A stretch of 64,000 bases of DNA from the NCBI GenBank assembly GCA_944331845.1, contig CALVIT010000001.1, forward strand, positions 48 through 64,047, read 5' to 3'. The position numbers were made by a program, and so were the translations under genes. This document shows, piece by piece, positions 2-63,699 of this stretch (position 1 is its first letter; each line of letters starts with the position of its first letter). The notes beneath the pieces were generated by a model. The model saw only the letters and a program-made list of their open reading frames with translations. It did not search any database and had not been told where the DNA came from. Source of the DNA: an uncultured Clostridia bacterium. Its GTDB lineage: Bacteria > Bacillota > Clostridia > Christensenellales > UBA1242.

Positions 2-1525
2 ATAACTTATACTTGTGCCGATACTGTTGAAGCAACTGTCCGCTGGACACCTATAGGTACATCTTCGAGTTCAACACAAAGATTTACTGGAACATTTGAT
101 GGTAATAATTATAGTATTACCTTTACTCAAACTATACATATCACAAGTGCTTCAGGGGATGTCTATGGCGGACTATTTGGATATACTAGTGGCGCTACAA
201 TTTCTAATCTAGGAGTCAACTGGGCAGGCACTGATAGTGTAGATATTGAGATAGAAGGGGAAACCAAATCATACACAGGATTAATAGTATCATCATTTTC
301 AAGTACTGTTTATGCTGGAGGAATCGCGGGGTATGCTGGGACCATCAGCAACTGCTACAACACGGGAGCAGTAACGGCGGAGTCTACTTCAAAGTATGCC
401 TTTGCCGGAGGGATCGCGGGGTATGCTGGGACCATCAGCAACTGCTACAACACGGGAGCAGTAACGGCGGAGTCTACTTCTTCTTATGTCTATGCCGGAG
501 GAATTTCGGGGGTGGCTGATTCAACAACCATCAGTAACTGCTACAATACGGGCGATGTGAATGCGGAGTCTACTTCAAAGTATGCCTGTGCCGGGGGAAT
601 CTCGGGGGAGATTTATGATACAACCATCAGTAACTGCTACAACACGGGAGCAATAACTTCTTATGTTTATGCCGGAGGAATCGCGGGGGGGGCTGATTCA
701 ATAACCATCAGCAACTGCTACAACACGGGTAGTGTGACTGCGACTGATTCAAATTTTACCGGTGCCGGGGGAATTTTGGGGTATGCTTATTATTCGACAA
801 CCATCCGAAACTGCTATAACACTGGAGCAATTACGTCTTTAGACAGTGTCGGAGGAATTTTGGGGTATGATGATTCTGATGCAACCATCAGCAACTGCTT
901 TAGTATAGGTACAGCACCTAGTGCAACAGGTAGTACAACGAAAGTAGGTGGTATAGTAGGAAGTGGCGGAACTGTAAATAACTGTTATCATAATTATGCT
1001 TCAATATATGAATATGAATCAAGTAATCAAATTACAGGTAAAGGTACATATGTAAGTAATCTTACAGATTATCTAGTATATTCAAGCGCTAATGCAAATT
1101 CAATCGTTAATAACTATACTCAAGGGTTTGGCGGTAATCAATGGTATACTGATGAGACCGAAGACTATTCTTGGGACTTTGATACAGTATGGGCGATAGA
1201 GAGCGGTATCAATGGTGGTTTACCATATTTAATAGCCATTCCGCCACAAGGAGAAGGGACACAAGGAAGTACTGTACAGTTAACCATTGAATATAGCGGG
1301 AGTGCTAAATTCTTAATAGTGGTAGAATATGGAGATAGTGCGTGTGCATTCACATATAGTGGAACATTTACATTTAATGTAGTAGGTGCAGAGTGTAAAG
1401 TAGCGATAATAGGATACAATGGTGAAAGCACATTGACATTGAATGATGCTTTACAAACAATAAGTAATAATACTTACACAATAAGTCTAGAGGATACTAA
1501 TAACATAGTACTAACATTAGGATAA
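2..1525 (+). CDS. GLUG-motif repeat surface protein, C-terminal part (5' end lies outside the window)
   Basis: The frame is open from the window edge to TAA at 1525. Upstream of the track start (512) the same frame reads WTPIGTSSSSTQRFTGTFDGNNYSITFTQTIHITSASGDVYGGLFGY, colinear with the module heads of the 58021 ORF. Repeated ISNCYNTGAV...YAGGI(A/S)G units match the GLUG motif type. Confidence 0.85.
   Translation: MTYTCADTVEATVRWTPIGTSSSSTQRFTGTFDGNNYSITFTQTIHITSASGDVYGGLFGYTSGATISNLGVNWAGTDSVDIEIEGETKSYTGLIVSSFSSTVYAGGIAGYAGTISNCYNTGAVTAESTSKYAFAGGIAGYAGTISNCYNTGAVTAESTSSYVYAGGISGVADSTTISNCYNTGDVNAESTSKYACAGGISGEIYDTTISNCYNTGAITSYVYAGGIAGGADSITISNCYNTGSVTATDSNFTGAGGILGYAYYSTTIRNCYNTGAITSLDSVGGILGYDDSDATISNCFSIGTAPSATGSTTKVGGIVGSGGTVNNCYHNYASIYEYESSNQITGKGTYVSNLTDYLVYSSANANSIVNNYTQGFGGNQWYTDETEDYSWDFDTVWAIESGINGGLPYLIAIPPQGEGTQGSTVQLTIEYSGSAKFLIVVEYGDSACAFTYSGTFTFNVVGAECKVAIIGYNGESTLTLNDALQTISNNTYTISLEDTNNIVLTLG
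323..480 (+). repeat. Exact 68-bp direct duplication (323-390 = 413-480, 90-bp period) inside the GLUG gene
   Basis: The string atcgcggggtatgctgggaccatcagcaactgctacaacacgggagcagtaacggcggagtctacttc occurs twice, 90 bp (30 codons) apart. Confidence 0.9.
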
Positions 1526-18987: not shown

Positions 18988-19239
18988 TTTTAGATAATAT
19001 AAGGAAATGATTTAGACAATTTTATAAAGTAGATTAATGTTTAGGTTAAAATAATTAATATTGATAATCTATATGCTATAATTAATCTAATTTATATCAT
19101 CTACGCAGTTTTATTTATCTTAATAACCAAAATGTGCAAATCATTTTAATTGATTTGACAATAATTGGTAGTTTTGTTATAATGAGTAGGTTATTAATAA
19201 TATTTAATATTTTACAAACAATACTTAAGGAGAAGTTTA

Positions 19240-21404
19240 TGTTAAAATTTACAAAAATTTTGTTAAGTGCTATGATTATGTGCATACCTTTTGTATTAAT
19301 TGCATGCGGTGGCAAAGATGCAAAATTTGAAAGTATGGCAGTTAAAGCAGGCACAATACAACAAACCTATGTTGAAGGTTCAACTATTAATTATAACAAC
19401 CTTGTTGTCGTGGTTACATATAGCGACAAGTCAACTAAAGAGATTAAAAGCAGTGATTTAGACTACACAACTATCGACACATCCATTGTCGGCGTTCAAA
19501 CAATGACAATAACTTATAACGATGGTAAGGTTGACCACTCAATAGATTATGATATTGAGATTGTCGCAAGAGATGCGATTAGTTATGTACTAGAGATTGA
19601 GAATCCTTCATATTTGAGTAATTATAATTCTAACCAAACAACAGGTGGGTACTTATCTCCACAAAAACAAGAAGCATATTATGTTGGAAGCGCTAATAAC
19701 TTTGTGTATAGACCAGAAGTTACAGCAGTAACTATGGCAAATAGTGCTATTATTCTTAATGAATATGTTAGTGATAGTTTCGTTGAACTCAAGAATGGCG
19801 ATAGTTATCAAAGATTGAGCGATGTCAATGATTATGTTGTAGTTAACAACAATACACAAGAATTTGATTTCACACAAGATGCTGTAGGTAAAATTTTTAG
19901 AATTAATGTAACTATTGATGGTTATGTACCTATGGAAGGAAATCAATATTCAACAATGGAAATAAAAGTTGTTGATGGGTGGAATGTATATTCCGCTAAA
20001 GATTTGTACGCTTTTGATGACAGAGAGATGTCTCAAGGAATTCGTGAACAATACAATATTGATAACACTGTTTCAGGGTTAGTATTACAATCAAATATTC
20101 AAATAAATAAGGAAGATATTTTAGACGATTTCTTATTTAGTGATGAAGAGTGGGCGACAATCGCTAAAGCAAAAAATGAAGCACAATATAACATATTAGT
20201 TGAGAACAATATTGATGGTACACTCAAAGATAAAGTCGCATTATTTGAAAGAACACTTGATAAGAATGAAACTTTCACAATATATGGTAATTATTACACA
20301 ATAAGTTCTGAGAAAATACCTTATGCAACTATCGATACTAAAGGTAATTTTATACCAGGTGGAATCAATGGGCATTCAGAATTATTCTACGCAGTAGGTA
20401 CTAACGATGTAACTCAAGAAGAAAACTACAAGAATAATACAAGTTTTGTTGTTAATAACATTAGTTTCTTAGGAAATGCTAACAAGTCAAATGCTGGAGA
20501 AGGTACTGAAGAATTATTAACTACAGTTAAAGCCGGCGGTATTAGACTGGTTAAAGTTGGTAATACAAATACTGAATTCAACAATACTATTGTTAGGTCT
20601 CATTATATTAGTTTTTTAGCTAATCACGATGGCGATACTTATGAGATATCTCAAGCAAATGCTAAGACAACATTGAATTATGTTATATTTGACGATTCTT
20701 ATAATTCAAATATCTATAGTTGGGGTGGTGGACTTATGTACATTAACAATAGTTCTATCACTAATGCTGGAGGTCCTGCCATCATTGCAGACCATGTATA
20801 CAACAAGAACAAAGAGACAGTGGACGATGGCATAATTTGTGAAATCATCGTCAATAACTCAACTATTGAATCATTTGTCAATGGTACTGAATCTTGGTTT
20901 AAGCAAATGAACGCTACTGAATATGTAAGTTTATTCCAAGCAGTAAGTAGTGGTGTTATCCAACCACAATCAAATAATACTAAGACTTTAGCAGTAACTA
21001 AAGATGGTTATCCTTACATTAATATACAATGCCTATTCAAACATTCTTCCGCTGAGAGTGCTACTTCACTTCCTATTAGAGGTAAATTGACAATCGATGG
21101 AGTTAAAGTGATTGACTTCGAAGAAGAAGATATGGTATTTAAGGCAATGTCAGCGCAAGCATCAGCGAATGGTGCACCATTATTCACAGTTGATGCACAA
21201 AATACTTTGACAAGTGCTATAGGCAATATTGATTTAAGTTCAAATCCAATAACTGGTAGTTTAATAAGTGCACAAGGTGCATTGACCGCTGATAGTCCAT
21301 TCTTTGACACTAATGCTAGTGAAATCGGTTTGTATTTCCCTATTGAGAAAAATCAAGGATTTATGGGCATTGCATTAGGTTACTTTAATGTAGCACAAAA
21401 TTAA
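19240..21404 (+). CDS. Large lipoprotein with an N-terminal Big_3-like Ig domain and a beta-helix-like region
   Basis: AAGGAG RBS 7 nt before the ATG at 19240 (the track ORF starts upstream at 19134). Signal MLKFTKILLSAMIMCIPFVLIAC with lipobox LIAC. The pattern YVEGSTINYNNLVVVVTYSDKSTKEI...VGVQTMTITYNDG is Big_3-like. Confidence 0.7.
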
Positions 21405-21457: not shown

Positions 21458-21746
21458 TTTGATAATCAAGACTTATTGATGATAAAAATTTAGTCCTAAT
21501 ATTTATAAAGAATGTCAAAATTTATTTATTTATATATTTTGACAAAACACTACTTGAAGTTGTGTAAAAGTTAAACTTAATTATACTCTAATAGGTGAAA
21601 TCATAACACGAAGTTTATAATAATTTAAGTGTGTCGCAAATATATTTTTGATACTAATTTCCCAAAAATCTATTAAATACAAAGAATTTTAAGTGTGTTG
21701 TTATAAGAAAAAATTCTATTAATTTAACAAATCGCATTAAAATTAT

Positions 21747-21776
21747 TTGACTAAAAAATAAATATTGTGATATACT
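21747..21776 (+). promoter_or_regulatory. Sigma-A promoter of GLUG paralog 2 (TTGACT, 18 nt, TGaTATACT extended -10)
   Basis: TTGACT at 21747-21752 and TATACT at 21771-21776 preceded by TGa. The same architecture and a 20-nt identical core occur at 57595-57633. Confidence 0.65.
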
Positions 21777-21829
21777 AAAATTAACGAACAAAAGAAAGGA
21801 GAGAGAAATTATGTTACAAGAGAACAAAA

Positions 21830-24640
21830 ATGCTAGGGGGGGGGGGGCGTACTAAGACCCAAGAAATAGGGCAAACTAGCGACAAAATAATACATAATGA
21901 ATTAACCAATAAAAAGGTAAATAGCATTAATGATAACAAAGCAATCAATATTAATGATTACAACAATATAGAGAATAATAACTCTAATAATATTGATAAA
22001 ATCTATAAAATCAATAAGGTAAATTATAAAAATTGTAATTCTAATATAGATACTTATAATAAATTAGTTACAAAAAAGAATAATACATTTATAAAAACTG
22101 CGCTACTTATCGTATCGTGGCTTTTTGTGGTTGTATTAAGTATCTTTGTTTTATGCAGTGCTAATGCAAATTCAAATATGAATAAATTAAATACTCCTAA
22201 CAATGCTATAGCGGTAGGTAGTACAACAGATGATGGAACAACTGCTTCAAGTTTTGCAGGCGGTACAGGAGACCCTGACGACCCATATCAAATAGCAACG
22301 CCTATGCAGTTAAGATTATTATCAATAGATAGTAGTTATTGGGCAGATAGTTTTATACAAACAGCGAATATAACTTATACTACTGATAGTTGGAATCCTA
22401 TAGGAAATGCAACAACCAAATTTACTGGTAATTTTAATGGTGGTGGATATGTCATTAAATTTGATAAACAAATTTCATTTAGTAATTTTACTGGGAAGTT
22501 ATATTCAGGTTTATTTGGATACGTGCAACAAGGAGAACTTCTTAATATTAGCGTCAAATGGGAATCAGGCATTAATGCATCTGTAGATTTGAGTGGTATT
22601 GATGACATTGAACCCGAAGATATGCAGAAAGCAGGGAATTATAATGCTTATGTAGGAGGTATTGTTGGATATGCAATCAATGAAAATATATATAATTGTC
22701 AACTTAGTGTAGGAGAGATTATTGTTCAAGGAAATGTAAATAATATCTATGGCGGTAGCGGATGGGTTTACGCTGGTGGGATTGTAGGTTATGCTGTTTC
22801 AAATTCAATAATTAAGGGGTGTAAGAATGCAGGTATGGTATCTGCCTCTGCTAATGTGAATCCCCCATCTTGGGATCCATATGGCGCTGAAAATGCATTT
22901 GCTTATTCTGGCGGGATAGTTGGCTATGGAGAATGTAATATGTACAATTGTTTAAATCTAGGTGAAACTGATGCTGATTCTCGTAGTACTACTTATGGGG
23001 AAAATTTGTATTCATATTCCGGTGGAATAGCAGGGGTGTTAAATGGTGGAGCAATTTATAATAGTTATAATGCTGGAAATTGTAGCGTGAGTGGAAGTTA
23101 TTATTTCTACCTTGGTGGTATAGCTTCTGTAGCAGAATCTGTTTCCATTGTTAATTGTTTTAATGTAGGTGGTTTTGAGCCTAGTGGCATTGCACTTATG
23201 GCAGGAATATCGGGGAATGCTTCAGGAATAATTCAAAATTGTTTTAATACAGGTGATGTATCTAATTATTATGGAGATTATGGTAATTCTTCGGGGATAT
23301 ACAGAGGAACGGCAACAGCTGAAAATTGTCAATTTAGTAGTCCTAATGAAGAAGACAATATAGATGGAACAACTTATAATGCTGATTTAACCTCTAATCT
23401 TTTTCAACAAGAAAACACTTTTACAAACAGCGAAAATAATATGTGGCATAGTTCTTCTTATTGGGATTTTACAAATGAGTGGAATATTGATACTCGTGAA
23501 GGCATTAGCGAGAGCGAAAGAGTTAATAGTGGATATCCATATCTTCGTGCTATGGAAGAATATGCTATCACCTACACAGCAGGCGAAGGTACTGGGGATG
23601 AGAAACTGATATATTACGGACTTAAATCTTCTTCGCCACAAGCAACATTACCTAATGGCACAGCAAGCGAAATAGAGTTTGTAGCACCCGATGGAATGGC
23701 ATTTGATTGTTGGGTTGATGAAAGTGCTCAAACATATCAAAGTGGGCAACAAGTTACTTTGACAGAGAATTTAGTACTAACTGCTCAATGGAAAGTACCT
23801 TATATCGACTTTAATATTGCATTAGATTTTAATGGCGGAAAAGGTGGTACTGTTACACAACTTGAAGTTAAACAATCAGTACCACAAAAAACACAATTTG
23901 CGACTAATGAACTACCTACAAGAAGCGGGTATACATTTAATGGGTACTATACTTCTCAAACTAATGGTACAATGTATGTAAATAGTGCTGGGCAAGTCGT
24001 AAAAACTAATACAAGTGATTACCTAACACAAATACCAACATTATATGCTCAATGGGTAGCAAATACTTATACTATTGTATTTAATTCAAATGGTGGACAG
24101 GGTCAAACAATGCAGTCAATGTCAATGACTTATGACACACCAAAGAATTTGACAAAGAACGCATATAGTAGAGATGACTACACATTCATAGGTTGGGCGA
24201 CAACTAAAGAAAGGGCAGACAGTGGGCAAGTAGACTATGTGGATGAAGCACAAGTTAATATTGTAACTACTAACAATGATACAATCACACTCTATGCGGT
24301 ATGGAAGTCAAACTATGTAGGAGTTACATTCAATATCACAACGAATGTAGGGGTTATATTCAATGTCTATGATAGTGATAATAACTTTGTACAACAAATA
24401 TATATAGGTAAGAGCAAAAATAATGCAGAGCAGACTATAAGTACACAATTATTAAAAGGTAAGACTTACACAATTAGAATGAGTGCGTTCTCTTCTGCTA
24501 ATATAACATTAGATAGTATTAATTCAATGTCTGGGGTATCAATGAGTGGTAGGACATTGACTATCATAGTTAATGAGAGCAGTAACACAATTACAATGAA
24601 TGTCAGCGGTTACACTTTCGGTAATGGTATCATTGTGTAA
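21830..24640 (+). CDS. Giant GLUG-repeat surface protein with Listeria-Bacteroides (Flg_new) repeats. The likely true start is ATG 21811, out of frame at the G12 tract.
   Basis: N/K-rich N-terminus, then the TM/signal anchor ALLIVSWLFVVVLSIFVLCSANA, GLUG-type units (AGGIVGYA...NC.N.G), and GYTFNGYY / YTFIGWAT Flg_new repeats. The RBS AAAGGAGAGAG serves ATG 21811, which reads MLQENKNARGGGAY-stop with 12 G. Confidence 0.85.
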   Translation: MLGGGGRTKTQEIGQTSDKIIHNELTNKKVNSINDNKAININDYNNIENNNSNNIDKIYKINKVNYKNCNSNIDTYNKLVTKKNNTFIKTALLIVSWLFVVVLSIFVLCSANANSNMNKLNTPNNAIAVGSTTDDGTTASSFAGGTGDPDDPYQIATPMQLRLLSIDSSYWADSFIQTANITYTTDSWNPIGNATTKFTGNFNGGGYVIKFDKQISFSNFTGKLYSGLFGYVQQGELLNISVKWESGINASVDLSGIDDIEPEDMQKAGNYNAYVGGIVGYAINENIYNCQLSVGEIIVQGNVNNIYGGSGWVYAGGIVGYAVSNSIIKGCKNAGMVSASANVNPPSWDPYGAENAFAYSGGIVGYGECNMYNCLNLGETDADSRSTTYGENLYSYSGGIAGVLNGGAIYNSYNAGNCSVSGSYYFYLGGIASVAESVSIVNCFNVGGFEPSGIALMAGISGNASGIIQNCFNTGDVSNYYGDYGNSSGIYRGTATAENCQFSSPNEEDNIDGTTYNADLTSNLFQQENTFTNSENNMWHSSSYWDFTNEWNIDTREGISESERVNSGYPYLRAMEEYAITYTAGEGTGDEKLIYYGLKSSSPQATLPNGTASEIEFVAPDGMAFDCWVDESAQTYQSGQQVTLTENLVLTAQWKVPYIDFNIALDFNGGKGGTVTQLEVKQSVPQKTQFATNELPTRSGYTFNGYYTSQTNGTMYVNSAGQVVKTNTSDYLTQIPTLYAQWVANTYTIVFNSNGGQGQTMQSMSMTYDTPKNLTKNAYSRDDYTFIGWATTKERADSGQVDYVDEAQVNIVTTNNDTITLYAVWKSNYVGVTFNITTNVGVIFNVYDSDNNFVQQIYIGKSKNNAEQTISTQLLKGKTYTIRMSAFSSANITLDSINSMSGVSMSGRTLTIIVNESSNTITMNVSGYTFGNGIIV
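21836..21847 (+). repeat. Poly-G tract (12 G) in the 5' coding region
   Basis: Counted directly: G at 21836-21847. It lies between the RBS-linked ATG (21811) and the long ORF. Confidence 0.95.
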
Positions 24641-33056: not shown

Positions 33057-33629
33057 ATGAAAACAACATATAAAAGATGCCCTAGATGTGAATTAAATTA
33101 TATCAAAAAGGGTGAAGATTATTGTAGCGTTTGTATCAATGAGATGAATTCTAGAAATGATAGTTTGAATTGTGATGTCGACCTTGAGTTGTGTCCTATC
33201 TGCAAAACTAATTACATTACCGAAGATGAGATTATGTGTGCTTCTTGTGCTGCGGAGAAAGAAGCCGAAGGCGAAGATATTGATGATATCGACATCTCCG
33301 AATGGAACGAGTATATCAACGAAGATGGTATAGAGTTAGACAACGAAGAAGATGAGAATCTTGGACCAATGGCATCTATTGGGAATATCGATGATGGGTA
33401 TGATGCAGGTATGACAAATGACCTTGATATGGATGACATTTGCGATTTGAATTTTGATGAAATCGATGATATGGCGAAAGATGAATTCAGCGCTGATTTA
33501 GAAGAAGATGAAGACTACGAAGACGACTTTGAAGACGACTTCGATAATGATAGCGATGAAGACGACGATGATGACTTTGACGATGATATTGATGATGATG
33601 ACGATGAAGACGACGACGATGATAAGTAA
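33057..33629 (+). CDS. Double zinc-ribbon protein with an extreme poly-acidic (D/E) C-terminal tail
   Basis: CPRC...CSVC and CPIC...CASC pairs in the first 65 aa. The last 120 aa or so are dominated by D and E (DDDDDFDDDIDDDDDEDDDDDK). Confidence 0.6.
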   Translation: MKTTYKRCPRCELNYIKKGEDYCSVCINEMNSRNDSLNCDVDLELCPICKTNYITEDEIMCASCAAEKEAEGEDIDDIDISEWNEYINEDGIELDNEEDENLGPMASIGNIDDGYDAGMTNDLDMDDICDLNFDEIDDMAKDEFSADLEEDEDYEDDFEDDFDNDSDEDDDDDFDDDIDDDDDEDDDDDK

Positions 33630-40820: not shown

Positions 40821-40966
40821 ATTATCACCTACATTAAGTTTTGACATAAATATTTTTTTTAAACAAAATTGTAGGGAATTCGTAGGCTTTGTGTGCTTTT
40901 GTAATGGTAAATAACAAAATCGCATTGATTTACATATATTGATAAAGAAATTTAAGTGAGGTTTTG

Positions 40967-42070
40967 ATGAATTTTTGTAATTATAATAAATGTAATTGTT
41001 GTTGTAATCAATCAAATGTTGATAAGATAATTAAATGTCAAAAAGGTGTTAATGGGGCGACAGGTGCGACAGGGCCTGCAGGTCCTACCGGTCCAATGGG
41101 ACCAACGGGTCCAACAGGCCCTGCTACAATCACTGTGGGGACTATTACACTTCTACCTGCTGGGTCTACTCCAACAGTTACAAATAGCGGAACTAATCAA
41201 GTTGCGGTATTTGATTTTGGCATACCTGAGAGCGTTACGGGCCCAACGGGGGCAACGGGGGCGACAGGTCCAACAGGAGCTACAGGTGAGCAAGGTGAAC
41301 AAGGGGTACAAGGGATACAAGGCGAAGTGGGACCAACGGGCGCTACGGGACCATCAGGTAACAATGTATTTAACCCTTATGAAATATATGTAAGAAGCAA
41401 TACTGTTGGGGGAATAGGAACTCAAAGCAATCCATTACCTAGTATAGAAGACGCATTACAAGTTGTCGCTAATAATGGCACAATATATGTCTACGATGGC
41501 ACATATCCTATAGATACAACTAATACCATATCAAAGAATAATATCACATTGACTGCTAAACCAAATGCGACAATATTATTGACTTCTAATGTAGTTCCTT
41601 TCTTAATAACAGGCAGTGGAAATACGCTTGAAGGATTCACAATGACAAGTGACAATGTATATCCTAATGAGTTCATACAGATAGGTGGGAATAATAATGT
41701 CATACGGCACAACATAATTTATGGTCCTACGCAAAGTGGAAGTTCAGACACTTGGGTAGCGAATAGGGGTGTAGTGACTCAAGCGAGCACGCAAAATAAT
41801 TGGATAGATGACAATATCTTCTACTCTTTAAGACAAAGTGGATACTTGAATCCTAATTCTACAGGATATATAACTCATAATGTTGTATTTAATACAAGGG
41901 GTTGGGTAGTAGACAGTGCATTATTTCAATTCTCTGGGAATTCTTGGGGTGAACCAGAAAATGCTGTTGATATTGCTCTATTGAGTGGTACGACTTCGGG
42001 TGTGCCTTATGCTTCAGTCGCAGATTTACAACAAAATAATAGTAATGCAAATATAAGCGACCAAAGATAA
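40967..42070 (+). CDS. Collagen-like triple-helix repeat protein with a C-terminal right-handed beta-helix-like domain
   Basis: Cys-rich N-terminus (NKCNCCCNQ). Two G-x-y runs (GATGATGPAGPTGPMGPTGPTGP and GPTGATGATGPTGATGEQGEQGVQGIQGEVGPTGATGPSG) flank a spacer of about 35 aa. The C-terminal part carries parallel beta-helix-like repeats. Confidence 0.8.
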   Translation: MNFCNYNKCNCCCNQSNVDKIIKCQKGVNGATGATGPAGPTGPMGPTGPTGPATITVGTITLLPAGSTPTVTNSGTNQVAVFDFGIPESVTGPTGATGATGPTGATGEQGEQGVQGIQGEVGPTGATGPSGNNVFNPYEIYVRSNTVGGIGTQSNPLPSIEDALQVVANNGTIYVYDGTYPIDTTNTISKNNITLTAKPNATILLTSNVVPFLITGSGNTLEGFTMTSDNVYPNEFIQIGGNNNVIRHNIIYGPTQSGSSDTWVANRGVVTQASTQNNWIDDNIFYSLRQSGYLNPNSTGYITHNVVFNTRGWVVDSALFQFSGNSWGEPENAVDIALLSGTTSGVPYASVADLQQNNSNANISDQR

Positions 42071-45500: not shown

Positions 45501-45506
45501 ACTTGT

Positions 45507-45667
45507 ACAAAAAATTATCGCCAAAGACAGCAAGTGGTTTATCCGCAAATTGCTTATGCAAACTTGCCGAGGAGATGTATAAGGTAATATGTCGTATGCA
45601 GGGTACGAAAACTATCTCTATGCTATCTCAATGTGGCATAGAGTTTTTTGTAACTATAGAAAGGAGG
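45507..45667 (+). promoter_or_regulatory. Ribosomal protein L10 leader with an intrinsic terminator/attenuator
   Basis: 5' UTR of about 165 nt between the promoter and the rplJ RBS. The hairpin CTCTATGC...GCATAGAG (45616-45643) is followed by T6 (45644-45649). Its position and layout match the Firmicutes L10-leader class. Confidence 0.65.
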
Positions 45668-53763: not shown

Positions 53764-54123
53764 TTATCATTGTTAATTTTGTATGAGTAATAAATTTATT
53801 AAAACAAAGCAAATATTAATCTAGAATTATTCGCTTTGTTTTTTTATATAATTTTATTATAGATTGATGTAATTCATTCTTATGATTATTGTATATTTGA
53901 TAAATTATATAAAAATAAGTTAAATAGGTACGAATAATTTTTGTTATTATATATTAAATAGTTTTATAAAACCATTAAAATTATTTGACTAAAAATTAGG
54001 TGTTAAAATGCACTATATTTAATCAAGACATATAATTATGTTTTTAACTCTTTTGCAAAAGTGTTAATAACATATTTGTGGACTAAAAAATTTGGGCGTG
54101 CATATAATATTACAGGTGATATT

Positions 54124-54417
54124 ATGAATAAATTAATTGTTAAAGTGGGGTACAATGATAGTTTATCTAAAATAGCAGAGCGTTATAATTTAACAACAAA
54201 AATTTTGAGTTCCGCTAATAACAATATAACTGAAGTTGAGGAAGGAGATTATTTGATTATTCCTTTTAAGGCGAAGGCTATTCACACTGTGCGACCTCTT
54301 GAGACTTTAAATGAAATTGCACAAAAATATTGTGTAAATGTGGATAAGTTAAAAAGTGATAACAACATTGTTGCTCCGCTTTTTGTCGGGCAACAAATAA
54401 TTATTATGGATGATTAA
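54124..54417 (+). CDS. Small tandem LysM-domain protein with no signal peptide
   Basis: AGGTGA RBS before ATG 54124. Two LysM-type units (VKVGYNDSLSKIAERYNLTTKILSSANN and HTVRPLETLNEIAQKYCVNVDKLKSDNN). Confidence 0.7.
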   Translation: MNKLIVKVGYNDSLSKIAERYNLTTKILSSANNNITEVEEGDYLIIPFKAKAIHTVRPLETLNEIAQKYCVNVDKLKSDNNIVAPLFVGQQIIIMDD

Positions 54418-57436: not shown

Positions 57437-57603
57437 AAGATAATATATTCTAGTCGATAGGTAATTATGTTTTTTATGTTCAAAATATGAATTATAGATA
57501 CAATGGAAATGATAAATTGTGTGCTATGTGTATTAATATCGCATTAATAAATAAGTTCAAAATAAAATGATAATAAAATTTCTCGAAAATAGTATAAAAT
57601 TAT

Positions 57604-57633
57604 TTGACTAAAAAGTTTTATATGTGGTATACT
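57604..57633 (+). promoter_or_regulatory. Sigma-A promoter of GLUG paralog 3 (TTGACT, 18 nt, TGgTATACT)
   Basis: TTGACT at 57604-57609 and TATACT at 57628-57633 preceded by TGg. Same layout as 21747-21776. Confidence 0.65.
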
Positions 57634-57691
57634 AGCAATAATAAACAAAACAAAGGAGAGAGTGTATTATGTTACAAGAGATGAAAACGCT

Positions 57692-57702
57692 GGGGGGGGG
57701 GG
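57692..57702 (+). repeat. Poly-G tract (11 G) in the 5' coding region
   Basis: Counted directly: G at 57692-57702, 21 nt after the RBS-linked ATG at 57669. Confidence 0.95.
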
Positions 57703-58020
57703 CGTTCTAAGACCCAAGAAATAGGGCAAAATAACACAAAAATAATACATAATGACTTAACTAATAATAAGTTAAATAACAATCAAAGAAACGATATAAT
57801 CAACGATATTGACAACTCAAATTGTGAGAAAAAAACACATACAACTAACATAAATAATGAGAATCAAGCAAAAAGTGTCAGTGAAATTGATTATAAGGAT
57901 ACTTATAATGAAGTTAGAACTCTAAATACAATAAATACAAATAATAAAATAAATAAAAAACTAAATAATGCACACAATATTACCGAGATTGAATTTGCTA
58001 GAGACGGTGCAGATTATAGT

Positions 58021-61000
58021 ATGCGAGCAAACAATGGAGGTAATGAAATGCGCAAACAAGATACATACAACGAAATAATGGATAGAAGAGTAGAAGAGAC
58101 TAGTATAGACAACAATAGTGGTCTTTTTGTGGATACAACAAATGTAGGAAAATATACTAAAAAAGAAGAAAAGGTCTTGTCTAGAGTACAAGCATTACAC
58201 AAGCGAGCAGGACACATACGCTCAAGGGTAGGGCAAAGTGCTAGTATAGGTGTACAACACACAAATACCTTTATGCGCTCTACAGTACAATTAGTATTGT
58301 GGTTATTAGCATTTGTCATGAGTCTAACAATGGTATGTTGTCTTAGTACAAATAAAGGCACTTTGAATGAAGTGAACGCAGTTAGTGGGACTGCTATCTC
58401 TACAGTGGATGAATTGAAAGCGGTGGCAAATAACTTAAGTGGTAGTTATTACCTAGCGAATGACATAACAGTAACTGACAGCACTTGGACCCCTATAGGC
58501 ACATCTTCAAGTAGTACATTTAAAGGCACATTTGATGGTAATGGCTATAGTATCACCTTTACTCAAACTATACATATCACAAGTTCTTCAGGGTCTGCTT
58601 ATGGCGGATTATTTGGTTATCTTACTAGTGCCACAATTAAGAATTTGGGTGTCATATGGTCAGAAGATAGCATAGATATTAATATAAATGGCGAAACAGA
58701 ACCATACACAGGCTTAGTAGTATCTTCTAAATCCAGTGTCCATGCCGGGGGGATCGTGGGGTATGCTTCTGTTTCAATCATAAGTAACTGCTACAATATG
58801 GGTGCAGTGAGTGCAGAATCGGCATCTTCTACTGCCTATGCAGGCGGAATTGTGGGAAATAATAATAATTCTTCAATCATCAGCAACTGCTACAACACGG
58901 GTGCAGTAAAGGCGACTGCTTCTGCTTCTTCAAAGACTGCTTATGCAGGCGGAATCGTAGGGGATTCAGATAATCCCATCAGCAACTGCTACAACACAGG
59001 TGCAGTGAGTGCAGAATCGGCATCTTCTACTGCCTATGCAGGCGGAATCGTGGGGGATGCGGGTAATCCCATCAGCAACTGCTACAACACAGGTGCAGTA
59101 AAGGCGACTACTTCTGCTTCTTCAAAGACTGCTTATGCAGGTGGCATTGCGGGGAATGGTGGTTATGGTACAACCATCAGCAACTGTTTTAGTATAGATC
59201 CTAACCTTAGTGATAGCATTAATACATCACCTAGTGCAGAAGTGAATAAAGCAGTCAATCTTACAAATGTAGGTGGTATAGTAGGAAGTGGCGGTACGGT
59301 AAATTATGGTTATCATAATTATGTAAGTTTAGATAATATCAATAAAGGTACCTATGTAGAGACCCTTGCTAGTTTCCTTGTATATTCAAATAATAATGCT
59401 AGTATAATAATTGATAATTATAAGTTTGGTTTTACAGTTAATACTATTAATTATGGATGGGACTCTGCTTGTACTTGGAATTTTGACATTATATGGAAAG
59501 TAAATACTGATGCTAGTACAAGTAATACTCAACCTTTAATTATAAATATGAGAATTCCACAATTTAGTGGAGAGGGGACCGCAGATTCACCATACATAAT
59601 TTCCAATTCTGACGATTTAAAGTCGTTGTCAAGTGCAGTTAGTGTGGGGCTCTTGAATGATTCCTATTATAGAGTAGAGTCACAAAATCTAAATAAAGTG
59701 ATAGAAATAACTGACAATACCTGGACCCCTATAGGTACATCGTCAAGTAGTGCATTTACTGGAACATTTGATGGTAATGGGCACAGTATCACTTTTACGC
59801 AGACTATATATATAACAAGCAGTTCAGGTGATGTCTATGGCGGACTATTTGGATATGCTAGTGATGCGACAATATCTAATTTAGAAGTTAACTGGGCAGG
59901 TACTAACACGATTAGTAATTATACAGGTCTGATAGTATCTTCTACAACTTCTACTGCCTATGCTGGGGGAATAGCGGGGTATGGTGAGAAAATTAGTAAT
60001 TGTTATAGCACGGGAGCAGTGACTGCGACTTCTACTCATACTTCTTCTAATGCCTATGCAGGAGGAATCGCGGGGTATTGTGGAACCATCAATAGTTGCT
60101 ACAATGAGGGAGCAGTGACTGCGATTTCCACAACTTATGATGCCTATGCAGGTGGAATTGCAGGAAAAGTGGTAGACCTTATATGTAATTGCTACAACAC
60201 GGGCACAGTGACTGTGACTGACTCAAGGTATGCCTATGCCGGAGGAATTTCTGGCAAGGCTTCGTCTTCAACAACAATCATTAACTGCTACAACACTGGC
60301 GCAGTGGATGCAACTTCTACATCTTCTTTTGTCTATGCAGGCGGAATCGTGGGATATGCAGAAGAGGCAACCAGTAGCAACTGCTACAACACTGGCGCAG
60401 TGGATGCAACTTCTACATCTTCTTCTGTCTATGCAGGCGGAATCGTGGGGTATGCAAAAGAAGCAACCAGTAGCAACTGTTTTAGTATAGATCCTAACCC
60501 TGATGATGATATTGATACAACACCTAGTGGTAAAACTGTAGGTGCTATAGTAGGAAGTGGCGGTACAGTAAATTATTGTTATCATAATTATTCATCAATT
60601 AATACAACAACTACTGGAACTGCAACGATTTATAATTCAAATTTGGCAGGTTTAGTAAAACAAAAAGATGAGTTTCTTGCATTAACTTGGGACCCTATTT
60701 ATCTTTGGAACTTCAACATTGTATGGGAAGTAAATACTGATGATAGTACAAGTACTACTCAACCATTGATAATTAATATAAGGGTTCCATTTACAGGAGC
60801 AGGTACTGAAGAATCTCCATATATAATATCCGATTCTGATGATTTAAAGTCATTGTCATATGGAATCAACTTGGGACTCTGGAATGATTCGCATTTTAGA
60901 GTTGAGTCACAAAATCAAAATAAAGTGATAGAAATAACTGACAATACCTGGACCCCTATAGGTACATCGTCAAGTAGTGCATTTGAAGGCACTTTTGATG

Positions 61001-63699
61001 GCAATGGCCACACCGTTAAATTTGCTCAAACTATACAGATTACATGTACCTATGGCGGATTGTTCGGATATACTAAGGGGGCTGCAATCAAGAATTTAGG
61101 GGTCAACTGGGCAGGTACTAATAAGGTCAGTGAGTATACAGGCCTAGTAGTATCTCCTACTTACAGGAATATCTATGTAGGTGGTATCGCAGGATATTCT
61201 GATTCAACAACATTCAATAACTGCGACATCACGGGTAGCATTACTGGTTCTTCGAATGGATATGTAGGTGGAATTGTTGGGCAGGCCATTATTGATACAA
61301 CCATCAGTGACTGTAACAACAAAGGGACAGTAAGTTCGATTTCTCCTGATGATTCTGCCGGTGTAGGAGGAATCGCGGGGTATGCTTCTTCTACAATCAT
61401 CAGCCACTGCGACAATATTGGTAATTTGTTTGCGACTGCTCGTAATGCCTATGCAGGTGGAATTTCTGGCAATGCTTCGTCTTCAACAATCAACAACTGC
61501 AAAAATACAGCGGAAGTAGTTGCAGAATCCACTGATCGTAGTTCTTCTTATGCCTATGCAGGAGGAATCGCGGGGTATGCTTATTCTTCAACCATCAGCG
61601 TATGTGATAACACAGGTGCAGTTAGTGCAGATTCTAATTCAAAAGATAGTGATGCCTATGCCCATGCTGGAGGAATTGTGGGAGGTGCTCCTTCTACAAC
61701 CATCAGTGACTGTAACAACACACCTGTAGATACAAATACAGTGACTGCAAATTCTTATAGTTCTTATCGTTCTAACTATTCTGGGTTCAAATATTCTTCT
61801 GCCTATGCTGGCGGAATTGTGGGGCGGGATGGAAACATCATCAACTGTAACAACACAGGGACAGTAAAGGCAGATGCGTCTAAGCCTGTTAATTATTATG
61901 ACGTTTCCCCTTTTGCCTATGCAGGTGGAATTTGTGGGAGTGATGGAATCATCAGTAATTGTCATAATGAAGGGGCAGTGAGTGCAACTGGTGATTCTGC
62001 TCGTATTTATACAGGCGGTATCGTGGGATATAGTAGAAAAACAATCAGTAACTGCTATAATATAGGCGTTGTAAGTGTAGATGGGAGTTCTTCTGCCGAT
62101 GTCGGGGGAATCGCGGGGTATGCTTATTCTTCAACAATCAACAACTGCTACAACACTGGTTCAGTGACTGCGACTACTCCTTCTGCTACTAATGCCGGGG
62201 GGATCGTGGGGTATGCTTCTTCTTCGACCATAAGTAACTGCCACAATAAGGGTGCAGTGGATGCGACTTCTACTTATATTTCTTCTAATGCCTATGCAGG
62301 AGGAATCGCGGGGTATGCTTCTTCTTCTTCTTCTATTACCATCAGCAACTGCTATAACACAGGTGCAGTGAAAGCGACTACAACTGATTCTTCTGCTAGA
62401 GCTCATGCCGGGGGGATAGTGGGGTATGCTTCTTCTTCTATTACCATCAGCAACTGCTATAACACAGGTGATGTAACCGTGACTATTAATGATTTTTCTG
62501 CTAAATCTAATACTGCCAATGCTGGTGGAATTGCAGGGTATGCTTCATCTTCAACAACCATTAGCAATTGCTACAATATAGGTGCAGTGAAAGCAACTGC
62601 GACTCGTACTTCTTCTAATGCCTATGCAGGCGGAATCGTTGGGCAAAATGCAAACATCAACAACTGTTACAACACAGGTAAAGTGACTGTGTCCGCATAT
62701 TCTTCTGCCTATGCTGGGGGAATTGTGGGAAGTGGCGGAACAATCAGCAACTGCTTTAGTATAGATTCTAACCTTAGTGATAGCACTAATACCGCACCTA
62801 GCGCTACTGGAAGTACAAAAAATGTAGGTGGTATCGTAGGAAATAGTGGGACTGTAAATAATAGTTATCATAATTATAGTGGTTTAAGTACTACAACTGG
62901 TTATGTACTAAATTTGGAGAACTTCTTAAAATATCCAAATAATAACAATAGTATTAATTCTAATGTAATTCAAGATAATTTCACATTAGGTTTTGGCACA
63001 TTATCTAATGGGACTTATCAATATCAATGGGATGATACTTCACCTTGGGACCTTATGAGTGTATGGGGCATAGATACTCGCACGGATATAAATGAAGCAG
63101 ATAGAATAAATGGTGGGTTACCATATTTGAAGTGGTTTGAAGAAGACTATATAACTTATGTTGTAACAAATGGCGATACCACTGAAGAAAAACGTGTATT
63201 TTGCGGAATAAAGGGGACAGTGACTTCGGTAATTGTTGTTAGTGTACAAAATGCTGGGTTAACGATTCCAAATGGTACAATATTTAGTAATTGGGTAGAT
63301 GTGGAAGGGAAGACCTATAATGTAGGAGATACAATACCTTTCACAGAAGGTATAGTATTAAATGCAGTATTAATTGAAATGCCAATGGTAACATTCAATG
63401 TTACAAATAATGTGTGCGCAATATTAAATGTTTACGATAGTAATGATAATTTCGTACAACAAGTATTTATTGATAAGAATTCTTCCCAACAAACTATAAG
63501 TACATATTTATTGAAGGGGGAAGTTTATACTGTAAGGATAAGTGTATTCTATACTGCTAATATAACATTGGATACTGATAATTCAATGACTGGAGTATCA
63601 ATGAGTGGTAGGACATTGACATTCGAAGTTAGTGATAGTGGTAATACAATTACAATGCAGATAACAGGCTTTAGCGGGGGGAATGGTATTGTGGTTTAG
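58021..63699 (+). CDS. Giant (at least 1892 aa) three-module GLUG-repeat surface protein. The frame is open upstream to 57685 and the likely true start is ATG 57669, out of frame at the G11 tract.
   Basis: The frame of 58021 has no stop back to 57685 and encodes RSKTQEIGQNNTKIIHNDL, homologous to the N-terminus of the 21830 ORF. TM anchor VQLVLWLLAFVMSLTMVCCL. Three modules, each with a TWTPIGTSSSS.F.GTFDGNG head and many NCYNTGAV...AYAGGIVGY units. The C-terminal domain is shared with the 21830 product. Confidence 0.9.
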   Translation: MRANNGGNEMRKQDTYNEIMDRRVEETSIDNNSGLFVDTTNVGKYTKKEEKVLSRVQALHKRAGHIRSRVGQSASIGVQHTNTFMRSTVQLVLWLLAFVMSLTMVCCLSTNKGTLNEVNAVSGTAISTVDELKAVANNLSGSYYLANDITVTDSTWTPIGTSSSSTFKGTFDGNGYSITFTQTIHITSSSGSAYGGLFGYLTSATIKNLGVIWSEDSIDININGETEPYTGLVVSSKSSVHAGGIVGYASVSIISNCYNMGAVSAESASSTAYAGGIVGNNNNSSIISNCYNTGAVKATASASSKTAYAGGIVGDSDNPISNCYNTGAVSAESASSTAYAGGIVGDAGNPISNCYNTGAVKATTSASSKTAYAGGIAGNGGYGTTISNCFSIDPNLSDSINTSPSAEVNKAVNLTNVGGIVGSGGTVNYGYHNYVSLDNINKGTYVETLASFLVYSNNNASIIIDNYKFGFTVNTINYGWDSACTWNFDIIWKVNTDASTSNTQPLIINMRIPQFSGEGTADSPYIISNSDDLKSLSSAVSVGLLNDSYYRVESQNLNKVIEITDNTWTPIGTSSSSAFTGTFDGNGHSITFTQTIYITSSSGDVYGGLFGYASDATISNLEVNWAGTNTISNYTGLIVSSTTSTAYAGGIAGYGEKISNCYSTGAVTATSTHTSSNAYAGGIAGYCGTINSCYNEGAVTAISTTYDAYAGGIAGKVVDLICNCYNTGTVTVTDSRYAYAGGISGKASSSTTIINCYNTGAVDATSTSSFVYAGGIVGYAEEATSSNCYNTGAVDATSTSSSVYAGGIVGYAKEATSSNCFSIDPNPDDDIDTTPSGKTVGAIVGSGGTVNYCYHNYSSINTTTTGTATIYNSNLAGLVKQKDEFLALTWDPIYLWNFNIVWEVNTDDSTSTTQPLIINIRVPFTGAGTEESPYIISDSDDLKSLSYGINLGLWNDSHFRVESQNQNKVIEITDNTWTPIGTSSSSAFEGTFDGNGHTVKFAQTIQITCTYGGLFGYTKGAAIKNLGVNWAGTNKVSEYTGLVVSPTYRNIYVGGIAGYSDSTTFNNCDITGSITGSSNGYVGGIVGQAIIDTTISDCNNKGTVSSISPDDSAGVGGIAGYASSTIISHCDNIGNLFATARNAYAGGISGNASSSTINNCKNTAEVVAESTDRSSSYAYAGGIAGYAYSSTISVCDNTGAVSADSNSKDSDAYAHAGGIVGGAPSTTISDCNNTPVDTNTVTANSYSSYRSNYSGFKYSSAYAGGIVGRDGNIINCNNTGTVKADASKPVNYYDVSPFAYAGGICGSDGIISNCHNEGAVSATGDSARIYTGGIVGYSRKTISNCYNIGVVSVDGSSSADVGGIAGYAYSSTINNCYNTGSVTATTPSATNAGGIVGYASSSTISNCHNKGAVDATSTYISSNAYAGGIAGYASSSSSITISNCYNTGAVKATTTDSSARAHAGGIVGYASSSITISNCYNTGDVTVTINDFSAKSNTANAGGIAGYASSSTTISNCYNIGAVKATATRTSSNAYAGGIVGQNANINNCYNTGKVTVSAYSSAYAGGIVGSGGTISNCFSIDSNLSDSTNTAPSATGSTKNVGGIVGNSGTVNNSYHNYSGLSTTTGYVLNLENFLKYPNNNNSINSNVIQDNFTLGFGTLSNGTYQYQWDDTSPWDLMSVWGIDTRTDINEADRINGGLPYLKWFEEDYITYVVTNGDTTEEKRVFCGIKGTVTSVIVVSVQNAGLTIPNGTIFSNWVDVEGKTYNVGDTIPFTEGIVLNAVLIEMPMVTFNVTNNVCAILNVYDSNDNFVQQVFIDKNSSQQTISTYLLKGEVYTVRISVFYTANITLDTDNSMTGVSMSGRTLTFEVSDSGNTITMQITGFSGGNGIVV
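60283..60474 (+). repeat. Tandem 96-bp (32-codon) duplication inside the GLUG gene, about 96% identical
   Basis: Units 60283-60378 and 60379-60474 (NCYNTGAVDATSTSS[F/S]VYAGGIVGYA[E/K]EATSS) differ at 4 nt. Confidence 0.9.

Follow-up and report, generated by a model that had tools for sequence, protein, structure and literature searches.

Several families of bacterial surface proteins are switched ON and OFF by short repeats near the start of their genes. In Neisseria, opa is a multi-copy surface-protein family, each gene having its own promoter and CTCTT repeats in the region coding for the leader peptide. Neisseria pilC and the contingency genes of Campylobacter jejuni carry poly-G early in the coding sequence, where frameshifts turn the gene ON or OFF. 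In Mycoplasma hyorhinis vlp (poly-A), Bordetella fim (poly-C) and Treponema pallidum tpr (poly-G), the run affects transcription, being placed between the promoter hexamers or upstream of them. To our knowledge, most documented homopolymer contingency loci belong to mollicutes or to a few Gram-negative pathogens. Phase variation in commensal and environmental Clostridia is known mostly as invertible promoters. Here we describe a short cassette, composed of promoter, Shine-Dalgarno site, start codon and G run, which heads genes for GLUG-repeat proteins in a 64,000-nucleotide (nt) stretch of DNA (the window) from an uncultured Clostridia bacterium (assembly GCA_944331845.1, contig CALVIT010000001.1). 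The window holds two copies, A and B, and further copies lie on related contigs (L numbers) and in database proteins (P numbers). We read the cassette as the common module through which a lineage-specific, membrane-anchored GLUG-repeat family is expressed and switched, and it probably serves independent slipped-strand phase variation of these paralogous, putative surface proteins.

The family resembles opa in its paralogs with their own promoters, its conserved 5' end and its repeat just past the start, an arrangement that would allow independent and combinatorial switching. It differs in the repeat unit, a pentamer in opa, and in the product. A Gram-negative pathogen carries the Opa proteins as small beta-barrels in its outer membrane, whereas the GLUG products are 900-2000 amino acids (aa) long, have a predicted N-terminal transmembrane (TM) anchor and belong to an uncultured, low-GC, Clostridia-like lineage. 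The early coding poly-G is shared with pilC and Campylobacter; those genes, however, are single or scattered and have no shared module of promoter, ribosome site, start and run. Like vlp, fim and tpr, the GLUG genes form a family with a conserved 5' region and a homopolymer that would set expression, but their run lies past the start codon.

Three further systems bear on individual features. In Haemophilus influenzae lic1 (licA), two reading frames out of three have a start codon upstream of the CAAT repeat, and two registers are able to yield the whole protein (PMC2212159). Comparably, copy A, L002 and L007 have two ATGs ahead of the run that differ in frame. Unlike the GLUG run, the licA repeat is a tetranucleotide, and its product is a cytoplasmic choline kinase; the second GLUG ATG is a candidate start that has no Shine-Dalgarno site and is absent from B, L009 and L010. 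The pmp genes of Chlamydia encode paralogous, large, repeat-rich surface proteins, and several of their long poly-G runs were in or out of frame between sequencing efforts (PMC3323650). The GLUG family is likewise paralogous, large and repeat-rich, with poly-G runs in or out of frame, although Pmps are autotransporters of an obligate intracellular Gram-negative. We know of no shared promoter-to-run cassette described for the pmps. Finally, the 5' poly(A) of inlA in Listeria monocytogenes, a member of the Firmicutes, frameshifts at about 1000 times the point-mutation rate and then yields an 8-aa product (PMC2831843). It gives a Firmicutes precedent for a homopolymer at the 5' end of a surface-protein gene, but inlA is a single gene with a short A run, in contrast to the family-shared G11-14. 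A literature search gave no link between GLUG proteins and phase variation. The layout is thus textbook phase variation, in a gene family and a lineage for which we found no earlier report.

Anatomy of the cassette in copies A and B

By blastn, positions 21738-21926 (copy A) and 57595-57781 (copy B), both on the forward strand, are 83.2% identical over 191 nt (E 1.3e-48). Elsewhere the two genes share DNA similarity in the 3' domain only (24323-24598 versus 63388-63657, 75%). The preliminary description had 21738-21900 and 57595-57790 aligning almost base for base; the alignment is real, but the wording overstated it in view of the diverged spacers. The match is a mosaic, in which near-invariant blocks alternate with spacers identical at 4/8, 12/18, 3/5, 8/13 and 3/8 positions.

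The first base of similarity is also the first of the 20-mer TAAAATTATTTGACTAAAAA (21738-21757 in A, 57595-57614 in B), which is identical at 20/20 positions and holds an A/T-rich, UP-like stretch and the -35 hexamer TTGACT (21747-21752 and 57604-57609). The extended, TRTG-type -10 element lies 18 nt beyond, as TGTGATATACT in A (21766-21776, hexamer TATACT at 21771-21776) and TGTGGTATACT in B (57623-57633, hexamer at 57628-57633); the TGTGnTATACT element agrees at 10/11 positions. A promoter consensus scan matched TTGACT-18-TATACT with its upstream TG at 10/12 in both copies, in agreement with the 20-mer, 18-nt spacer and extended -10 first described at these loci. The Shine-Dalgarno site AAAGGAGAGAG follows (21795-21805 and 57652-57662, 11/11 identical), and then come the start ATG TTA CAA GAG, read as MLQE (21811-21822 and 57669-57680), and the G run, with 12 G at 21836-21847 in A and 11 G at 57692-57702 in B. 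A further invariant block is ATGTTACAAGAG (12/12), and the coding blocks CGTWCTAAGACCCAAGAAATAGGGCAAA and AAAATAATACATAATGA are identical at 27/28 and 17/17 positions. In A, the conserved first codons past the run (21848-21926) read RTKTQEIGQ..KIIHNELTN; in B the conserved block extends to 57781.

Shine-Dalgarno duplexes, computed against an assumed 16S 3' end, have energies of -13.4 kcal/mol at the MLQE ATG of A and -9.4 kcal/mol at that of B, compared with a mean of -2.6 for all ATGs of the window. Pairing at main ATGs, from -9 to -13 kcal/mol, falls in the top ~5% of ATGs. The G run begins 59-60 nt 3' of the -10 hexamer and past the ATG, and the 18-nt promoter spacer contains no run; a promoter-spacer switch of the vlp, fim or tpr type was ruled out on these grounds. 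The one other G run of at least 8 in the window, a G8 at 685-692 (GCG GGG GGG GCT), lies inside the GLUG repeats of a third family member, paralog 1 (2-1525, forward strand, 5' end outside the window, on a contig of 64,083 nt), and could be a second slippage-prone site in that gene.

The 20-mer occurs in three exact copies in the window, against 0.19 expected even when up to 3 mismatches are allowed. It is conserved in 8 cassette copies, and TGTG and TATA(C/A)T are invariant in the multi-copy cassette alignment. The first account of the 20-mer as shared by two GLUG loci was correct for both, but it overlooked the third exact copy (53976-53995, forward strand), so the element is not exclusive to GLUG genes. 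This copy stands 130 nt upstream of a small LysM-domain gene (54124-54417). Counting the three preceding bases (53973-53995), the LysM site shares the 23-mer CATTAAAATTATTTGACTAAAAA with copy A. The promoter scan found no -10 element at 16-18 nt from this 20-mer, and the profile of the whole cassette (nhmmer) matched its UP/-35 part only. The LysM gene likely uses TGGACT-18-TATAAT (54079-54108) as its promoter, and the upstream 20-mer may be left over from a cassette, represent a shared regulator or UP site, or mark a past recombination.

Reading frames, run lengths and their interpretation

Both MLQE ATGs, at 21811 (A) and 57669 (B), are out of frame with the long open reading frame (ORF) of their gene. 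The G12 of A starts at codon 9 and the G11 of B at codon 8, and in each copy the MLQE frame meets a stop 2 codons past the run. The resulting products have 14 codons in A (MLQENKNARGGGAY) and 13 in B (MLQEMKTLGGGAF). Each run is one G over its MLQE in-frame length, which is 11 or 14 in A and 10 or 13 in B; we read both copies, as assembled, as OFF from the main start. The 936-aa ORF of A is open at G12 from a second ATG in the +1 frame (21830-21832, ATGCTAGGGG), and for this reason ORF lists and the database entry P0002 begin MLGGGG. Shine-Dalgarno pairing at this ATG is at background level (-2.9 kcal/mol), and it would give leaky, low expression at most. Copy B has no ATG in the ORF frame 5' of its run. 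Its frame stays open for 1998 codons on from the run (57703-63699), and the first in-frame start codon is at 58021. The 112 codons from the run to that start are open in DNA of ~27% GC, and because so long a frame is open in such AT-rich DNA, the stretch past the run is coding. The MLQE start itself is validated by its strong Shine-Dalgarno pairing and by protein P0004, which reads MLQEMKNARGGGRSKTQEIGQ... in frame from MLQE; its 11 G are inferred from its peptide.

From this anatomy, we propose that each paralog is expressed from its own near-consensus, sigma-A-type promoter (an A/T-rich stretch with TTGACT, 18 bp, and TGTGnTATACT), a strong Shine-Dalgarno site and ATG TTA CAA GAG. Four to five codons past the start, a run of 10-14 G would be read as glycine codons, and replication slippage would add or remove one G. 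In the OFF state, ribosomes from the strong ATG would meet TAA or TAG 2-7 codons past the run, and a further slip would restore the frame (ON). As each paralog has its own promoter and run, switching would be independent, and a clonal population would come to show different combinations of GLUG proteins. The common promoter may also place the family under common control, as the preliminary description suggested.

That description allowed for the case that the cassette occurs at two loci only, with no poly-G in relatives. Cassettes with G10-G17 were instead found at the head of GLUG-family genes on L002, L007, L005 (three), L006, L009, L010 (two), L088 and L008, and the cassette is also visible in four protein N-termini (P0004, P0246, P0128 and P0184). 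An nhmmer profile of the cassette matched GLUG-family gene starts only (E 1e-12 to 1e-26), plus the partial LysM site. Two types share promoter, Shine-Dalgarno site and run position. Type 1, that of the window, reads MLQE..G(n)..RTKTQEIGQ, and type 2 reads MK(L/M/I)QKNK(M/I)L-G(n)-VDRLLSTSNNN. In type 1, the off frames contain TAA and TAG within 2 and 7 codons past the run; in type 2, they stop within 1-2 codons of it (TAGATAG). A genome holds several paralogs, each with its own promoter and run, as seen in window copies A and B, 36 kb apart, in the three cassettes of L005 and in the two of L010.

All 17 G runs of at least 9 in 154 kb of related DNA are cassette runs, and all lie on the coding strand. 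Their lengths are not spaced by multiples of 3 (10+, 11, 12, 12, several 13, 14 and 17). GGG makes up just 16-19% of the glycine codons of the window, and the cassette runs use GGG alone; G-only runs at ~14 loci despite this low usage indicate selection on the DNA homopolymer rather than on a poly-glycine peptide. This bears on a simpler explanation, in which the run is a fixed poly-glycine linker with no switching role, conserved by shared ancestry or gene conversion. Its proponents could point out that the coding blocks past the run (27/28 and 17/17) agree at synonymous sites too, that most differences elsewhere change the amino acid, a pattern expected of recent conversion, and that A/B similarity at the DNA level is confined to the 5' and 3' ends. 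The exclusive use of GGG is not what a peptide linker calls for, though, length differences that are not multiples of 3 truncate the ORFs, and diverged spacers amid invariant functional elements do not fit wholesale recent conversion. We hold a fixed linker to be very improbable.

The same observations inform how the cassette was kept. Its mosaic conservation favours selection on promoter, Shine-Dalgarno site and start, and the identity of the coding blocks at synonymous sites points to conversion or a nucleotide-level constraint. Taken with the mostly non-synonymous differences nearby and the sharing of two ends only between A and B, this identity suggests that conversion or recombination also acts.

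The preliminary proposal of a multigene family with independent ON/OFF switching held in each part open to sequence analysis: both ON and OFF run lengths are seen, between paralogs as well as at one orthologous locus. The main ATG is in frame in P0004 and in the type-2 loci (L005b/L006, L009/L010b and L010a); out of frame are window A, window B, L002, L007 and L088. Individually, L002 is an ortholog of A (protein 81% identical) with G12, and L007, whose sample also yielded contigs identical to the window, has G13. L005 (11.6 kb) bears two cassettes with G13 and a third where the contig ends inside the run, and L006 carries further cassette copies. L009 has G13, L010 has G14 and G13, L088 has G14 and L008 has G17. 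The orthologous locus is that of L009, L010 and L088, which share the end of the upstream gene and the downstream DnaB_2/IstB genes. With G13 it is ON in L009 and L010 (MKMQKNKILGGGGVDR...), and with G14 it is OFF in L088 (MRIQKNKILGGGGGR*), where the ORF was called from an internal TTG. This G13/G14 pair is the best single evidence for a change in length.

Several points weigh against heritable switching as we propose it. The L009/L010 and L088 alleles are not identical, and their contrast is not one within a clone. Loci recovered twice have identical run lengths (L005b and L006, L009 and L010b, window B and L003, which is the same locus as B with the same 11 G); the assembly pairs may come from the same samples, and the agreement would then be uninformative rather than contrary. 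The out-of-frame loci (A, B, L002, L007, L088 and L008) all have the ON length plus one G (6/6), and none has the ON length minus one, an excess that mutational bias, selection for low expression or systematic over-calling of homopolymers might explain. Long G runs are prone to error in contigs like these, assembled from short metagenome reads at low coverage, as the A27 anomaly of L008 illustrates, and the run lengths were taken from assemblies rather than from reads within one population. Surface location and promoter use are, moreover, predictions.

These points lead to the explanation that all the genes are in frame from MLQE and that the OFF states are +1 G errors of assembly or sequencing, a case in which the run may still be mutable. 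That six loci are out of frame by exactly the same single G fits such miscalls, as do a contig coverage of ~4-9x, judged from contig names, and the low-complexity artefacts beside the run in L008 and at the ends of L005. P0005 and P0093, moreover, differ in their N-terminus at one locus. Yet four other loci came out of the same pipelines in frame, with G13 or G14; window B and L003 agree on their count, and A and its 81%-identical ortholog both have 12 G. Miscalls as the general explanation are, in our judgment, improbable. As to the individual anomalies, contigs start or end inside cassettes at L008 2700-2757 and 1-46 and at L005 1-44 and 11600-11609. In L008, ~A27 takes the place of the start-codon region, with GGA and G17 behind it, and this sequence is duplicated at the contig start. 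These anomalies are probably assembly artefacts at a repeated low-complexity module. The locus of P0005 and P0093 (L007 10001-10021) reads MRGGRGRTKNQQ in an NCBI/ENA metagenome-assembled genome and MLGGGGRTKNQQ in a metagenome scaffold; one assembly of the two has either an interrupted run or a miscall.

A third alternative holds that the run sets an expression level through RNA-polymerase slippage or ribosomal frameshifting, with no heritable ON/OFF state. Type-2 cassettes do carry a perfect 8-bp hairpin, (G)TAGATAG-nnnn-CTATCTA(C), or GTAGATAG-nnnn-CTATCTAC, directly 3' of the run (L005 8541-8562, L009 1723-1744, L010 166-186 and L088 292-313). Its loops vary (GTTA, TTTA, GAGA), each off frame meets a TAG in its 5' arm, and the fold has a z-score of -2.6. 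This hairpin is what such recoding might employ, and the single +1 register of the out-of-frame alleles would suit it. The window's own type-1 cassettes, however, fold neither significantly nor in a conserved way (z -0.5 to -1.8, with helices of A and B in different registers), both off frames meet stops within 2-7 codons, and in-frame alleles exist for which recoding is not required. Non-heritable recoding is very unlikely on this evidence. A conserved RNA structure in type-1 cassettes was ruled out on the same z-scores and registers, and a G-quadruplex of the run with a downstream GGG was ruled out by L007, which has no such GGG. Rfam gave no match in the cassette leaders, its sole match in the window being the L10 leader (45503-45659).

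Returning to slipped-strand switching, a bolder version would add a third state. Two ATGs in different frames precede the run in A, L002 and L007, and the second is absent from B, L009, L010 and L088; in three out-of-frame loci, the ON+1 register is that of the second ATG, which has no Shine-Dalgarno site. The cassette could accordingly be pictured as a dimmer with a high state (first ATG), a low state (second ATG) and an off state, being portable and recombined through the 5' block and the 3' domain, with the asparagine-rich tail of the protein swapped wholesale between alleles, in what would be the first contingency-locus family to be described in this uncultured Clostridia lineage. Were this true, the 6/6 excess of ON+1 would reflect selection for the low state. 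We offer this extended picture as a doubtful one, deserving mention.

The reach of the cassette was explored by pattern searches. The exact pattern ATGTTACAAGAGN{5,35}CTAAGACCCAAGAAA had no match in 185,579 species-representative genomes or in the metagenomes of the Joint Genome Institute (JGI). A looser pattern, TTTGACTWAAAAN{62,90}G10, matched 44 JGI loci, none of which is a cassette (poly-G artefacts, telomere-like repeats and unrelated genes), and it had no match in viral contigs. A protein-pattern scan of the species representatives returned one near relative only, 'uncultured Clostridia bacterium BRZ_MD__bin13' (L011), with the 5' end missing at the contig edge, and an N-terminal protein search returned P0001 only and missed the long family members. 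Look-ups with the copy A protein, the protein of ORF 19134-21404, P0004 and P0005 returned no contig. The intergenic motif TATAGRTTRGTGTAA, found near L005c, is not enriched in the window. In an unrelated organism of ~34% GC, L059 9779-9862 (also L077) contains TTGACT-17-TATAAT, a Shine-Dalgarno site and a 13-codon ORF with G10, ~100 nt upstream of a prepilin-type gene (KGFTLAEVLV...); it is possibly a separate poly-G switch.

The encoded proteins, their setting and significance

The products of A (gene remainder 21927-24640) and B share one layout, with the short conserved peptide past the run, an asparagine-rich tail, one TM helix, a repeat ectodomain and a C-terminal domain. The tail differs in length before the TM anchor, as first described, with ~85 aa in A and ~200 aa in B. 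In A, the single helix ALLIVSWLFVVVLSIFVLC precedes an ectodomain of GLUG and Flg_new repeats; in B, the helix is followed by many GLUG repeats and the C-terminal domain (63388-63657). In the translations, lysine residues precede the hydrophobic helix, from which an N-in orientation is predicted. Pfam Glug (PF07581) scored 22.7 bits in A (gathering cut-off 20.5), 135 bits in B and 73.7 bits in paralog 1, and A also matches PF09479 (Flg_new, the Listeria-Bacteroides repeat). Glug and Flg_new were the only Pfam families returned for the GLUG proteins, and no autotransporter beta-barrel domain was found.

A C-terminal domain of ~100 aa, VTFNITTNVGVIFNVYD...GNGI(I/V)V at the very end, is common to all family members. 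Neither this domain nor the N-terminal module corresponds to a family in the Pfam or NCBIfam libraries; the conserved C-terminal domain may serve in sorting or anchoring. In the tails, the asparagine-rich part is replaced wholesale between L009 (1724-1930) and L088 (293-560), two alleles whose ectodomains share 90% identity or more. P0246 has a tail that resembles A over ~85 aa and B beyond (juxtamembrane motif EEKVLSRVQ.LHKRAG). Such mixing suggests recombination within tails.

The neighbouring genes are those of an ordinary chromosome, namely gidA, tilS, valS, the L10 operon with its leader, ABC transporters and a MurJ-like flippase, and the window has a GC content of ~31%. Two other proteins are unrelated to the cassette. 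One is collagen-like, with G-x-y repeats (40964-42070, Pfam Collagen), and the other has 190 aa, CxxC pairs and an extremely acidic poly-Asp/Glu tail (33057-33629).

These results have practical consequences for the annotation of such genomes. Gene callers mis-annotate the GLUG cassette genes with MLGGGG... starts or with internal Met or TTG starts, and metagenome assemblies break at the cassettes. For the biology of the family, the gain is one of scope, as the mechanism itself is textbook, and it lies in homopolymer contingency loci heading giant GLUG proteins in uncultured Clostridia. A GLUG family with a common promoter-to-poly-G module suggests stochastic surface variation in this lineage, and the pressure behind such variation could lie in phage or host, or in attack by antibody or predator.

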